Part shown: positions 13,506 through 52,385 of the stretch, piece by piece
Layout of the letters: each line of letters opens with the position of its first letter
How positions within the stretch are numbered: the first letter of the stretch is position 1
Assembly: GCA_951406725.2 (NCBI GenBank)
Contig: OX597839.1
Coordinates: 28,272,001-28,336,000 of the forward strand
Direction: 5' to 3'
DNA length: 64,000 nucleotides
Source: Octopus vulgaris
Lineage: Eukaryota
Made by a program: the position numbers and the translations under genes
Notes under the pieces: generated by a model
Databases searched by the model: none
Told to the model about the DNA's origin: nothing
Seen by the model: the letters and a program-made list of their open reading frames with translations, nothing else

Positions 13506-14078
13506 TATTATAGATGATGTTGTTGCTGCTACTAATGATGATGCTGTTAGCTCCAGATGAAACCCTAATCGAGTACAAAGGCACTCGTACCTTAACAGAG
13601 TCAGCGAGTTATGTTGAGTAACAGAGTCGAACCTTTCAATCCATCCGAGGGGACTTCCTTACAGTTTCCGCTGTCTCAGTTTCAATCATCAAGGATTTGA
13701 GTCGACCCAACGACACGGTGACAAAACAGATACCTGGCAGCGGGATCGAACTAGGAATCTCGTCTTTGGAAAACGAACCCTCTTTAACCAATCAAATCAT
13801 TCCCACATAATTCAAAGAGGAAAGAAGTCAGATTATTCCATTAATAACTTGTAGAAACTCCGTATTTCGTTAAGCAACCGTAATATGCTACAGAGTATAT
13901 TAAAGTCTGTACTGTATTCTACTGTGTTAGCAGTGCTATAACGTTATAAATGCGTTGAATAGAGACAGTAAAGCGAGTAGCCACATCAAAGTGACAGATG
14001 AATGTTACTACTAGTTTAATCCCTGGCGGGGATAGTAGGGGTGGGTTCGCTCCCCCTGCTAGTGATATATTATATGGT

Positions 14079-24554: not shown

Positions 24555-25760
24555 GATGGTGGGAGTAGTGATGGAGGTAGTGATGGTCGTGGGGATGGTG
24601 GTAGTGGTGTTGGTAATGGTGGTGGTGGTAGTGGTAGTGGTGATGGTGGTAGTGGTGGTGGTGGTGTTGGTAGTGGTGGTGGTGGTGATGGTAGTGGTGA
24701 TGGTGGTAGTGGTGGTGGTGTTGGTAGTGGTAGTGGTGGTGGTAGTGGTAGTGGTGATGGTGGTAGTGGTAGTGGTGGTGTTGGTAGTGGTGGTGGTGGT
24801 AGTGTTGGTAGTGGTGATGGTGGTAGTGGTGGTGGTGGTGGTTGGTAGTGGTGGTGGTGATGGTGGTAGTGGTGGTGGTGGTGGTGGTGGTGGTGGTGGT
24901 GGTGGTGGTGGTGGTGGTGGTGGTGGTGGTTGTGGTGATGTTGGTAGTGGTGGTGGTGATGATGGTAGTGGTAGTGGTGGTGGTAGTGGTAGTGGTGATG
25001 GTGGTAGTGGTAGTGGTGGTGTTGGTAGTGGTGGTGGTGGTAGTGTTGGTAGTGGTGATGGTGGTGGTGGTGTTGGTAGTGGTGGTGGTGATGGTGGTAG
25101 TGGTGATGGTGGTAGTGGTGGTGGTGGTGGTGGTGGTGGTGGTGGTGGTGGTGGTGGTGGTGGTGGTGGTGGTGGTGGTGGTGGTGGTGGTGGTGGTGGT
25201 GGTAGTGGTGATGGTGGTGGTGGTGGTAGTGGTGGTGGTGGTAGTAGTGGTGGTGGTGGTGGTGGTGGTGGTGGTGGTGGTGGTAGTGGTGGTGGTGGTG
25301 GTAGTAGTGGTGGTGGTGGTGGTGGTGGTAGTGGTGGTAGTAGTGGTGGTGGTGGTGGTGGTGGTGGTGGTAGTGGTGGTGGTGGTAGTAGTGGTGGTGG
25401 TGGTAGTAGTGGTGGTGGTGGTGGTGGTGGTAGTGGTGGTGGTGGTAGTAGTGTAGTGGTGGTGGTAGTAGTGGTGGTGGTGGTAGTAGTGGTGGTGGTG
25501 GTGGTGGTAGTGGTGGTGGTGGTAGTGGTGGTGGTGGTGGTGGTGGTGGTGGTAGTGGTGGTGGTGGTAGTGGTGATGGTGGTAGTGGTGGTGGTGGTGG
25601 TAGTGTTGGTAGTGGTGATGGTGGTGGTGGTGGTAGTGGTGGTGGTGGTAGTAGTGGTGGTGGTGGTAGTAGTGGTGGTGGTGGTGGTGGTGGTAGTGGT
25701 GGTGGTGGTAGTAGTGGTGGTGGTGGTGGTGGTGGTAGTGGTGGTGGTGGTGGTGGTGAT
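24555..25760. repeat. ~1.2-kb (GGT/AGT/GAT)n trinucleotide tract
   Basis: Directly visible. A more decayed version lies at 23970-24300. Confidence 0.98.
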
Positions 25761-48611: not shown

Positions 48612-49485
48612 TACGACGGGCTTCTTTCAGTTTCCGTCTACCAAATCCACTCACAAGGCATTGGTCGGCCCAGGGCTATAGTAGACGACACTTGCCCAAG
48701 ATGCCACGCAGTGGGACTGAACCCGGAACCATGTGGTTGGTTAGCAAGCTACTTACCACACAGCCACTCCTGCGCCTTAGTTGGTATTTTTGTATAAAAT
48801 TTGTCCGGAAAGCTTTTATCCTGGGGCGGATTTTGCCCTGATACCAGGCAGGCAGAGACAAATAGACGGGCAGGCAAAGAGGTAGACGCACAGACAGACA
48901 GATAGGCAGACAGTGGCGGACAAACGGCGACCGACAGAGAGGCAGAGTCTCACGGATTGACATACAAGAATGCGGGCAATAGCTATGGGGAAAATACTTA
49001 GCGATACCGACATAAAGTATCATTACTTGTATCAGGATGGATTGAGAAGAGTGGTGTGAAGATCTGAGATGTCTTTTGTTTTAATTGGATTTAGTTAAGG
49101 AGACAAAGCAAGAGATTATAGGTGCATAGAAAATAATAAAACCATGAGTGCTGGTTATCCACAAACACACACTTATATTTCAACTGGTTCACAGATCCTC
49201 AAAAGCCTTAAGAGCAGTTTTGGTTTAAACAAAAGAAATTTTTGTCCCTTTGTGAGTGATCGACTTGAGTTCTGCGAAGAGGAAAGGTTTTTAAATTCCA
49301 AATAAATAATAGGCGCAGGAGTTGCTGTGTGGTAAGTAGCTTGCTTACCAACCACATGGTTCCGGGTTCAGTCTCACTGCATGGCACTTTGGGCAAGTGT
49401 CTTCTGCTATAGCCTAGGGCCGACCAAAGCCTGATGAGTTGATTCGATAGACGGAAACTGAAAGAAGCTCGTCATATATATATGC

Positions 49486-49516
<31 letters not shown>

Positions 49517-50259
49517 TATGTATATATATATATATAATGTGTTCCCCCCATACCCCCGCTTGACAACCGATGTTGGTTTGTTTACATCCGCGTAGTTCGA
49601 CAAAAGAACCCGATATAAAATGTACCAAGCTTTAAAACTAATAATAATAATAATAATAATAATAACAGTCATAATAAGCACTGGGGTTGATTCATTCAAC
49701 TAAAAATTCTTCAAGACGGTGCCCCAGCATGGCCGCAGTCTAATGATTGGAACAACTAAAAGAAAGTAAAAAGAATAGTATAAAAAAGAAAAAGAAAGAT
49801 ATCGCTCGTAAAAGTCGACCCTAATTCTTCCCAGATAACCCCGACCATCTGTTGAATGAAATGCTGTGCAAATAAAGAAGGTCTGCAGTAAATATTTATG
49901 TTTGTTGTTACGTGGCCTTATTATGGGCGTCGTCGTTATTTAGGAGAACGTGAGGGTGGCGAGCTGGAAGAATCGTTAGCGCACGGGGCGAAATGCTGAG
50001 CAGGATTTTTTTGCCGGGGACGTAAACACACCAACATCAGTTAAGCGATGGTTGGGGGGAAGGGACAAACACAGACACACAAATACATATACATGTACAT
50101 ATTCGACGAGCTTCTTTCAGTTTCCGTCTACCAAATCCACTCACAAGGATTTGGTTGGCTTCAAGCTACAGTAGAAGACACTTGCCCAAGGTGCCACCCA
50201 GTGGGACTGAACCTCGAACCATGCTGTTAGGAAGCAAGCTTCTTACCACACAACCACGC
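48367..50259. mobile_element. Three family B SINEs in alternating orientation: 48367-48777 (-), 49311-49776 (+), 50010-50259 (-)
   Basis: Each matches the family B consensus. Confidence 0.93.
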
Positions 50260-50839
50260 TATTATTATTATTTTTGATCGGCAGATTAACTTGGAACAAT
50301 TTTTTTCTTTACAGTTTGGTCCCTTTTTTAATATTCCCTAAATGAATATCTCTACCCTATTGTCTTTCTTTTTCTCTTTCACACGCATACATGTCTCTTT
50401 CTTCCCACCCACCCACCCTCTCTCTCTCTTGTCTCTTACCCTCTCATCTCTCTTTCCATTCTTCCTAATTCAATATTGTTCCGTTAAACCCTTTTCACAA
50501 CTACCCCTTACACACCCAAACTATTCTACACATCAACCATAAAACGTCCCTAATTAAGGAACTACAATCATTAATCGATCCTCCCAGACAATATATCTTC
50601 ATGAAAACTGACTTTAAAGAGGAAATAACAACAACAACAACAACAAAATCATAACACTAAAAAGAACGACAAATTCACATTTACAAAACATAAAACCAAA
50701 GACGGTGGATTGTGTGATTGTGTGGGGGGAATTTTTTCTATCAATATCGATCCGCAAACTTTGTGTGTTTCTGAGTGATGTTTCCATATCTTACACTCAC
50801 CCCGTCACCATTTTCTGTGCCATTTTCGAACGGAAGTCT

Positions 50840-51192
50840 TTCTTAATACAGTTCTGTATTTAAGAGATGAGGAATTAAGTACATTGTTTACATTTGACGG
50901 ATATTTCTCCTCATCTTGTTTGTAGTTAACACAACGTTTCGGCTGATATACCCACCACGGGCATATGGCGTGGTGGTTAAGAGCGCGGGCTACTAACCCC
51001 AAGATTCCGAGTTCGATTCCAAGCAGTGACATGAATAATAACAACATCGAAAAATACCTTAGGGATAAGAACCCAGATTCGAAATTTCCCCCAAGACACC
51101 TGATAAAGGCTGGAGGGTATATCAGCTGAAACGTTGTGTTAACAACAAACAAGATGAGGACCAATATCCATCAAATGTAAATAATGTACATA
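50840..51192 (+). mobile_element. tRNA-headed, hammerhead-containing element with a 5' inverted duplication (Penelope-type structure)
   Basis: Inverted arms at 50879-50953 and 51115-51189. A box TGGCGTGGTGG at 50966-50976, B box GAGTTCGATTCC at 51009-51020, HHR at 51095-51140. Confidence 0.8.
51095..51140 (+). ncRNA. Type I hammerhead motif (G8 mutated in this copy)
   Basis: GACAC-CUGAUAA-A-GGCUG/gaggguauau/CAGCU-GAAAC-GUU-GUGUU. The inverted copy retains CAGCC-GAAAC. Confidence 0.7.
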
Positions 51193-51463
51193 AAGTAGTC
51201 TTTTTTGTTTAACGTGCATTTCTTATGTCGGCACCAAGTCAGCCCGTTTTACAGACGGTTCCAGAGACTTCTAAATTATGTTCAGACAAGAGAAGGGATC
51301 GATATCACGACATTCCCGCCCCCAGGCCCTGGACGGAACGCCAGTTCGTCGCAAAGCTGTTCACTTAATGGCTGAATGGATTGCAGTAGCGTGAAGTGAA
51401 GTGGGTGTTGCTTAAAAACACAATACACTGCCTGGACTGGGAATCGAAACCCGATCTTGCGAT

Positions 51464-51576
51464 AGGCGTGGGGTAAGACGCTTGCTTCCAAACCACATGG
51501 CTCCGAGTTCAGTCTCTCTGCATGACACCTTGAGCAAGTGTCTCCTTCTATAGACTCGAGCCAACCAAACAAAACC

Positions 51577-51622
<46 letters not shown>

Positions 51623-51802
51623 AGTGTATTACTCTTTTACACATTTCAATCATTTGACTGCGGCCATGCTGGAGTACTGCATTTAGTCTAGCAAATCGAC
51701 CCCAGGACTTATTCTATCGGTCTCTTTCGCCGAACTGCTAAGTTTCGGGGACATAAACACACCAACATCGGTTGTCAAGCGATGGTAGGGAGACAAACAC
51801 AA

Positions 51803-51854
<52 letters not shown>

Positions 51855-52385
51855 CATACGACAGGCTTCTTTCAGTTTCCGTTTACCAAATCCAATCACA
51901 AGGCTTTGGTCAGCCTGAGGCTATAGAAGACACTTGCCCAAGGTGCCATGCAGTGAGACTGAACCTGGAACCATGTGGTTGAAAGCAAGCTTCTTGTGTG
52001 TATGTTCCCCACCACCGCTTGACAACCGGTGTTGGTGTGTTCATGTCCCCGTAACTTAGCAGTTCGGAAACAGAAATGTCTTCTGCTATAGCCTCGGGCC
52101 CCACAAAGCTTTATTTATGGATTTGGTTGAAACGAACCCGTCGTGTACACGAGTGTGTGTGTGTGTGTGTCTGTCTGTCTGTCTGTCTGTCCCACACACC
52201 GCTTGACAACCGGTATAGGTTTGTTTACGTCACCGTAAACTAGCAGTTCGTCAAAAGACACCGGTAGAATAAGTACCAGATTTTTAAAAATAAAATACTG
52301 GGTTTGAATCATTCGATTGAAAATTGTTCGAAGCGGTGCTCCAGCAAGGCCGCAGTCCAATGATTGAAACAAGTAAAAGACAAAA
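51464..52385. mobile_element. Cluster of family B SINE copies and fragments (including 51630-51995, -)
   Basis: Match the consensus in both orientations. Confidence 0.85.

Follow-up and report, generated by a model that had tools for sequence, protein, structure and literature searches.

A tRNA-derived head and a hammerhead motif in the terminal repeat of an autonomous Penelope-like element of Octopus vulgaris

The 64,000-nt window of Octopus vulgaris DNA analyzed here (the whole stretch, contig OX597839.1, positions 28,272,001 to 28,336,000) carries an insertion of the terminal repeat (pseudo-LTR) of an abundant autonomous Penelope-like element (PLE), whose identity as a PLE is nearly certain. 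The repeated unit is about 265 nt long and consists of a tRNA-Arg-like head, an (AAT)n linker, a minimal hammerhead, and a tail; together these form the 3′ UTR/pseudo-LTR of the PLE. A role of Pol III at the head is likely, as judged from sequence comparisons. We propose, with a probability of roughly 60%, that short copies of the unit come from Pol III transcripts that would start at the tRNA segment of the pseudo-LTR and be integrated by the PLE enzyme. A sequence-only reading of the locus had described a separate, non-autonomous Pol III element mobilized by a Penelope-type reverse transcriptase (RT). The second half of that description holds up, in that an autonomous RT-encoding PLE of this genome carries the unit. 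The first half has to be given up, because the whole unit, including its tRNA head, is the terminal repeat of the autonomous element.

The insertion and its hammerhead motif

The insertion is bounded by a 10-nt target site duplication (TSD), found by comparing the flanks and overlooked in the sequence-only reading. Its left copy, AGTCTTTCTT, occupies positions 50835-50844 (+) and its right copy, AGTCTTTTTT, positions 51197-51206 (+); the two match at 9 of 10 nucleotides, with one mismatch. Next to the left copy lies an inverted, 5′-truncated pseudo-LTR arm (50845-50954, −) that runs from hammerhead stem II to the end of the ~35-nt PLE tail and corresponds to unit positions 159-272 (91% identity to family copy L004; BLAST span 50844-50957). 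This inverted 3′ copy and its break within stem II had been recognized before, but its start had been placed at 50879. It carries the last ~35 nt of the family, which are absent from the forward arm. The forward arm (50955-51196, +) covers unit positions 1 to ~241, without the optional tail, and its 5′ end is the preferred 5′ end of the family. The window copy is thus a typical PLE insertion, with head-to-head arms, the tail on one arm only, and a short TSD.

Within the forward arm, the tRNA-derived head (50959-51032, +; best match tRNA-Arg in alignments to genomic tRNAs) contains a Pol III A box, TGGCGTGGTGG (50966-50976, +), and a B box, GAGTTCGATTCC (51009-51020, +), both where the sequence-only reading had put them. 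The family form of the A box is TGGCGTAGTGG, and family column frequencies reveal an A-to-G change at the seventh base of the window copy. The head is followed by an (AAT/AAC)n linker (51034-51045, +), which in many copies is expanded or carries other insertions, and by the site of the family's first in-frame ATG (51065-51067, +), which reads ATA in the window copy. The minimal type I hammerhead motif occupies positions 51095-51140 (+), with predicted cleavage after U51135. The remaining 3′ part of the unit (51141-51196, +) is the sequence found 5′ of the conserved PLE N terminus in tandem copies. As had been noted, there is no poly-A and no T4 run before position 51201. However, the TTTTTT at 51201-51206 lies inside the right TSD and is target DNA rather than a terminator encoded by the element, so the ~250-nt transcript predicted to end there would be specific to this locus.

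The window hammerhead has a stem I of GACAC/GUGUU, a stem II of GGCUG/CAGCU, and a loop-less ACGU stem III, which bears out the type I motif described earlier. Its core differs from that of the family by G8A at 51105 and C11.1U at 51127. G8 is present in 72 and C11.1 in 63 of 81 aligned copies, the 81 being those whose hammerhead region aligned among 90 position-sampled copies (the first 90 of 6,097 head matches, from the first 48 Mb of one contig). The family majority has a CUGAUGA/GAAAC core, an extra base before stem II, a palindromic stem III, and U at position 17; a strictly intact core occurs in 16 of the 81 copies. By motif comparison, this is the minimal type I hammerhead found in PLE pseudo-LTRs. 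According to the available part of PMC4209133, in which the class is described, minimal hammerheads did not cleave as monomers and a dimer was needed. The 3′ ends used by the unit lie downstream of the predicted cleavage site. The earlier call of G8A, and with it of a probably inactive copy, agrees with these data: the core is damaged, and with the A-box change and the lost ATG also considered, the window copy is probably dead.

A head inserted at this locus alone would have refuted the sequence-only reading. Instead, the unit is a high-copy family with a CUGAUGA majority, and the hammerhead lies no more than 600 nt from the head in 70 of the 90 position-sampled copies.

Microsatellites and short repeats abound in the window. 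Around the insertion, at window positions 49320-50260 and 51460-52380, lie several copies of other short interspersed repeats, some in each orientation. Elsewhere in the window, a 19-nt B-box-like match to the head (13742-13760, −) falls within a different, more decayed tRNA-like repeat, and a tandem array of (GGT)n type, 1.2 kb long, spans positions 24557-25758 and shows extreme GC skew.

The autonomous parent element

We searched the genome (2.8 Gb, 227 contigs) with the 241-nt unit and obtained 2,508 candidates; all 40 that were scored match it near full length, which chance by far does not explain. The partner was found in the flanks of such copies: in L008, L014, and L020 the head follows the end of an open reading frame (ORF), and in L020 an ORF start follows the tail. 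A DNA query from the C-terminal region of this ORF places the unit 3′ of the ORF in 30 of 30 loci, with the head in 27 (one locus being the query itself), and an N-terminal DNA query places part of the unit 5′ of the ORF N terminus, on the same strand, in 23 of 30 loci. When an unrelated homolog served as the query, all 30 loci examined, of 150 listed, belonged to the PLE family; the stop codon is followed immediately by the head in 24 of these and by a unit lacking the head in 2, and the remaining 4 have no unit within 120 nt. The ~2.3-kb ORF region is flanked by the unit at either end in 7 of 20 extended loci. The autonomous partner sought by the sequence-only reading therefore exists as a PLE with an RT, and it shares the entire unit and not, as had been expected, only its 3′ end; a GIY-YIG domain is suggested by motif.

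All 20 extended loci are broken, with no frame longer than 305 aa. Eleven long copies match their own column majority at 91.5-94.7% identity. The column majority of 18 copies forms one 835-codon frame, which in tandem copies opens at the ATG within the unit and passes through the hammerhead into the PLE ORF. This majority frame contains DKG, YGLPKIHK, YVDD, and a C-terminal VYSIPC..Y.GET..R..EH motif. Copy L165 matches RVT_1 (E = 5.8e−8), and the N terminus aligns to homologs of 826-834 aa (E = 2e−14 and 1e−25). The family thus shares with endonuclease-bearing (EN+) PLEs a PLE-type RT in a single long ORF, and pseudo-LTRs that result from partial tandems flanking this ORF.

The C-terminal region is suggested to be a GIY-YIG endonuclease by its motif and by a sub-threshold PF01541 match (E = 0.017) in one of six homologs. 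Pfam gave no GIY-YIG match in L165, BLASTP against the L061 protein gave no match, and an AlphaFold model (pLDDT 48) was of too low quality to be compared with known folds. A CxxxxCxxC Zn-finger motif is absent from the linker, unlike that of the L061 family of the same genome; judged against the Neptune/Nematis Zn-finger described in the available part of PMC8557442, this points to the Penelope/Poseidon type. Homologs of 55-69% identity are known; two metagenome scans for relatives with flanking DNA found none.

Neptune-type PLEs were also considered as the partner. A Pfam GIY-YIG search of the genome returned mostly such elements, mostly with the Zn-finger linker. We rejected them because none shares the unit: among 30 loci from this search, none matched it better than E = 0.89.

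The tail of the family (window positions 51177-51196 and 50845-50895, −) contains a GT...AG stretch of 38-47 nt that is a candidate intron. Its removal would bring an ATG further downstream into frame with the ORF, near the start of homolog P0124, and a common 9-nt duplication in the stretch keeps the frame. The intron-less tail junction has no match in the genome. PLEs keep introns, so the missing junctions neither support nor refute the candidate.

The short copies bear the marks of PLE-type integration. They make up 78 of the 90 position-sampled head copies and outnumber ORF-linked copies ~6- to 7-fold among head-bearing copies. An inverted arm adjoins 57 of the 78. The two-armed loci were defined as those with both arm ends within 600 nt; there are 66 among 120 loci examined (the 90 position-sampled loci and 30 best matches, a few of which represent the same insertion twice). 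A long arm is paired with a short one in 57 of the 66, the two differing by ~35 nt, and a flanking duplication of at least 9 matching nt in 40 of the 66, versus 5 of 300 shuffled pairings. An inverted 5′-truncated copy, a 30-40-nt tail on one end, and a short TSD are the signature of EN+ PLEs.

The 5′ edge at the tRNA-derived head and the origin of the short copies

In comparisons with 25 distinct genomic tRNAs (a set from which many isotypes are missing), two tRNA-Arg are the best matches to the head. The window head matches tRNA-Arg(TCT) in 51 of 78 aligned columns (z = 7.6), and that of copy L187 matches tRNA-Arg(TCG) in 48 of 75. An Rfam scan of the window yielded nothing that reached the gathering score, and none of its tRNA or hammerhead models matched at E ≤ 10; ARAGORN predicted no tRNA, either in the window or in any of 40 family loci. 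The head is thus tRNA-derived, yet not a tRNA. Its acceptor stem is lost, and it folds no better than shuffled sequences (z = 0.09). Conservation of the B box (0.73-0.98 per column) is not above that of its surroundings, as expected for dead copies, and lends no support to a promoter.

The head coincides with a sharp step in copy number. Exact k-mer counts over the whole genome are 859 at ~190 nt and 850 at 25 nt upstream of the head, whereas the head (18-mer) gives 6,097, the body 9,103, and the tail 11,919, with 0 for reversed-pattern controls. Solo terminal repeats hence exceed ORF ends ~14-fold (11,919 versus 850). A headless Neptune-type PLE used as a control has no such excess (357 at the ORF end, 160 in the 3′ UTR, 215 in the tail), but the comparison is imperfect because this PLE belongs to a different, younger clade whose 3′ UTR varies between subfamilies.

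Distances of 5′ ends were measured from an anchor in the head, CTACTAACC, with the tRNA-equivalent +1 located 31 nt upstream of it. Among the 90 position-sampled copies, 15 end 0-21 nt upstream of the anchor, 63 end at 23-38 nt, none at 39-50 nt, and 12 further away. After exclusion of 9 segmental-duplicate or second-arm rows, 54 of 81 copies end in a 16-nt zone at the tRNA 5′ edge, which spans from the A box to 7 nt upstream of +1, versus 5.4 expected from the upstream truncation rate. The edge reappears in a tail-anchored set of 24 insertions (30 arms): 19 have an arm starting at unit positions 1-23, one starts at 37, and four at 79 or beyond, and none of the 24 extends into the ORF. Less in line with a start at the head, the upstream repeat is long enough to include the head in 6 of 30 N-terminal loci, and of these six repeats 4 run on into ORF sequence and only 2 stop at the head.

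We hypothesize that these short copies arise as follows. A single capture event would have placed a tRNA-derived, SINE-like piece 3′ of the ORF stop and 5′ of the hammerhead. Wherever the boxes are intact, Pol III would start ~6 nt upstream of the tRNA-equivalent +1, and its transcript would include the hammerhead and the tail and end at the first T4 of the flanking DNA. The single loop-less hammerhead would leave the monomeric RNA uncleaved, so that the RNA would retain the 3′ end used by the PLE RT/endonuclease. The PLE protein would reverse-transcribe this short RNA at a staggered cut, and two arms would be joined head-to-head by microhomology or fold-back, leaving a TSD of roughly 10-15 nt. 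The PLE would in this way make its own "SINE," and the window copy would be one such product.

Part of the stretch is contained in 20 listed sequencing runs, under 6 organism codes. In two RNA-seq runs, both of one code, reads over the unit are strand-symmetric, 75-81% of them run on into unlike sequence, and depth at the head is up only ~2.5-fold; no start, end, or cleavage pile-ups at the unit are listed in either run. The pattern fits passive read-through, and libraries of this type detect short Pol III RNAs poorly.

Such an edge could also be an ordinary 5′ truncation hot spot of the PLE, with the tRNA segment a mere passenger: long Pol II or circular templates would be ended by snap-back at a palindrome or by stalling of the RT at the GC-rich head. 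The edge overlaps the palindrome TGCCC-AC-GGGCA, and perfect palindromic junctions centered on this hairpin do occur (e.g., L146 and L235/L236). In the available part of PMC3846280, pseudo-LTRs of Adineta PLEs, which have no tRNA head, also have defined lengths and 5′ palindromes, and self-priming at these palindromes is proposed; self-priming could therefore set the boundary here, too. That short and long copies are of one sequence, and that RNA-seq reveals no start site, would suit this explanation as well. Although it is the main rival, we consider it unlikely. Even where no inverted arm was found within 45 nt, which applies to 21 short copies, the 5′ end lies 24-38 nt upstream of the anchor in 19. 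The edge coincides with the 5′ edge of the tRNA, in a head that does not fold better than chance. Moreover, an RT stalled on a tRNA-like fold should stop on its 3′ side and not at its 5′ edge.

It is improbable that the short copies instead form an independent SINE lineage, whose short masters, perhaps once derived from the pseudo-LTR, borrow only the PLE enzyme. Their numerical preponderance would fit such a lineage, any short copy with intact boxes could act as a source, and short copies are slightly nearer to the majority than ORF-linked ones (mean divergence 6.9% versus 9.2%), but this gap is confounded because short copies were selected by an exact 18-mer. On the other hand, 41 short and 19 ORF-linked copies have the identical majority base throughout 221 columns. 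Only 7 of these columns differ at P < 0.05 (smallest Fisher P = 0.008), and none is diagnostic. Polymorphic sites are common to both classes (e.g., G/A in 11/6 ORF-linked and 24/13 short copies), and the autonomous PLE itself bears the whole head. Highly improbable, finally, is processing of long PLE transcripts at the head by RNase P or another tRNA-processing enzyme, which would place 5′ ends near +1, where many indeed fall, but in 25 of the 90 copies the end is beyond +1, at 33-38 nt from the anchor (in some of them possibly through fold-back or microhomology bases), and the head has no acceptor stem and is not recognized as a tRNA.

If Pol III does start at the head, it might also make the full-length PLE template, from the tRNA promoter in the upstream pseudo-LTR through a terminator-purged ORF, as a sense RNA of ~2.8 kb. 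T4 runs are absent from the 2,505 nt of the majority ORF, whereas 2.8-2.9 would be expected by synonymous shuffling (P = 0.034 in one run and 0.015 in another; P = 0.032 without the first 50 codons), and the deficit persists under a second null that frees Phe codons (P = 0.002-0.017). Across 88 loci, which cover every part at least 25-fold, no T4 site is common to more than 10% of copies. Of three Neptune-type ORFs, those of 2.3 and 1.7 kb have 9 and 8 T4 runs, respectively, and one of 1.0 kb has a single run; no count is significantly below expectation. Broken T5 terminator motifs in the majority ORF (0 observed, 0.9 expected) are uninformative. In L166, which is full-length, and in L172, the head is the first PLE sequence, whereas in four other long copies ORF sequence is found upstream of the head. 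Because the argument comes down to one a priori T4 test with modest P values and no control from the same clade, we regard a full-length Pol III template as rather unlikely. If it were true, the template would be sense and unspliced, which bears on the sense/antisense and intron-retention questions raised for PLEs in the available part of PMC3846280, and one promoter would yield both the full-length template and the self-made SINE.

An independent SINE composed of the head and (AAT)n was considered and rejected. No hammerhead lies within 600 nt of the head in 20 of the 90 copies; those of the 20 that were inspected have expanded (AAT)n, inserts, or internal deletions, and 14 of the 20 adjoin an inverted unit arm, although a few may stand alone. 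The linker is also often expanded or interrupted in L012, L023, L025, L072, L140, L186, L197, and L202, and some inserts are common to several loci. It looks like the target of a microsatellite-targeting retroelement, possibly a Dong/R4-like one.

Relation to known elements

The octopus family closely resembles canonical EN+ PLEs of the Penelope/Poseidon type, as described in the available parts of PMC8557442 and, for Adineta Pen2a, PMC3846280. It shares with them an ORF of ~830 codons, DKG, a putative C-terminal endonuclease region, and a linker without a Zn-finger, as well as partial tandems of pseudo-LTRs that overlap the ORF start, an inverted 5′ copy, a 30-40-nt tail on one arm, a TSD near 10 nt, and a minimal hammerhead in the pseudo-LTR. 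It differs from them in that its pseudo-LTR begins with a tRNA-derived A/B-box segment. The one Penelope promoter that has been dissected, in D. virilis, is LINE-like, TATA-less, and internal (PMC2377424, available part), and Adineta pseudo-LTRs have TATA/Inr-like motifs (PMC3846280).

A small-RNA-derived Pol III promoter within a terminal repeat is also known from the TRIMp3 elements Cassandra, Helenus, and Ajax (Kojima 2024, PMC10886601), for which, in the available text, an origin by SINE insertion into the repeat is proposed. TRIMp3 are, however, non-autonomous LTR elements with PBS/PPT and 4-5-nt TSDs between direct LTRs, whereas the octopus arms are inverted and their TSD matches are mostly 9-15 nt. 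Their autonomous partners are argued in the same source to depend on Pol II and to be unlikely to have a long stretch of that LTR in common with them; the octopus autonomous PLE, in contrast, itself carries the tRNA repeat. Our observations thus run against the expectation, stated for LTR elements, that a Pol III repeat is not shared by autonomous partners.

Schistosome Sm-alpha/Sj-alpha likewise combine a Pol III promoter with a type I hammerhead downstream in a short repeat. In the available part of PMC6765202, they are head-to-tail tandem units freed by cleavage, and no autonomous parent with the same unit is described there. The octopus copies are instead head-to-head, their hammerhead is minimal and loop-less, and the parent PLE is identified. 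Animal non-LTR retrozymes (PMC7229834; bioRxiv 10.64898/2026.07.22.740005; both in part) are short, non-coding, type I hammerhead relatives of PLE pseudo-LTRs for which movement by PLE enzymes is proposed. They form head-to-tail tandems with at least two hammerheads (PMC7229834), while octopus units are dispersed inverted pairs with a tRNA head. The available main text of the bioRxiv paper contains neither "tRNA" nor "Pol III." All sampled short octopus copies are solo or head-to-head.

The unit also shares with SINE2 elements a tRNA-derived head with A and B boxes. Its 3′ ends, at unit positions ~230-243 and ~261-273, have no poly-A or simple-repeat tail, and it is not a separate non-autonomous family that has only a 3′ tail in common with its partner. 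Ohshima and Okada reportedly described the octopus tRNA-derived SINEs OK, OR1, and OR2 in 1994. The R in the names OR1 and OR2 reportedly refers to tRNA-Arg. OR2 is listed as a CORE-SINE in the available part of PMC4758252, whereas the body of the unit studied here is (AAT)n and PLE sequence; the unit may still be identical to a named family. The word "hammerhead" does not occur in the available text of an octopus repeat paper (PMC13282606) and its one supplement. No PLE with a tRNA-derived pseudo-LTR was found in the literature searched, with Repbase, Dfam, SINEBase, and subscription journals outside the reach of the search, and the family may already be catalogued, perhaps as a SINE.

Both the transcription of PLEs and the origin of their tandem and inverted structures are described as unresolved in the available parts of PMC8557442 and PMC3846280. 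A tRNA-type promoter in a PLE terminal repeat would offer a defined start site and thousands of natural products, so that template strand, priming, and fold-back become testable. It would also suggest a route to a SINE, with a short Pol III unit that is both the terminal repeat of its parent and a separately amplified ~265-nt element. Annotation would label as a SINE what are in fact PLE ends, amounting to at least 11,919 exact tail matches (at ~7% divergence, an estimated ~50,000 arms).

Other PLE families are present in the genome. The Neptune-type family represented by L061:1245-4660 and L062:1164-4500 has a 781-aa RT/GIY-YIG ORF, an upstream open frame of ~330 aa, and a U3-A8 variant of the minimal hammerhead ~0.85-1 kb after the stop codon. 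The 781-aa frame is still open in many copies, and the family looks young. Behind the Neptune-type copy in L062, another head-to-head element is inserted (L062:4600-4930), which has a different hammerhead-like motif, CTGAAGAG...GAAATTGG, and is probably the end of a third PLE family.
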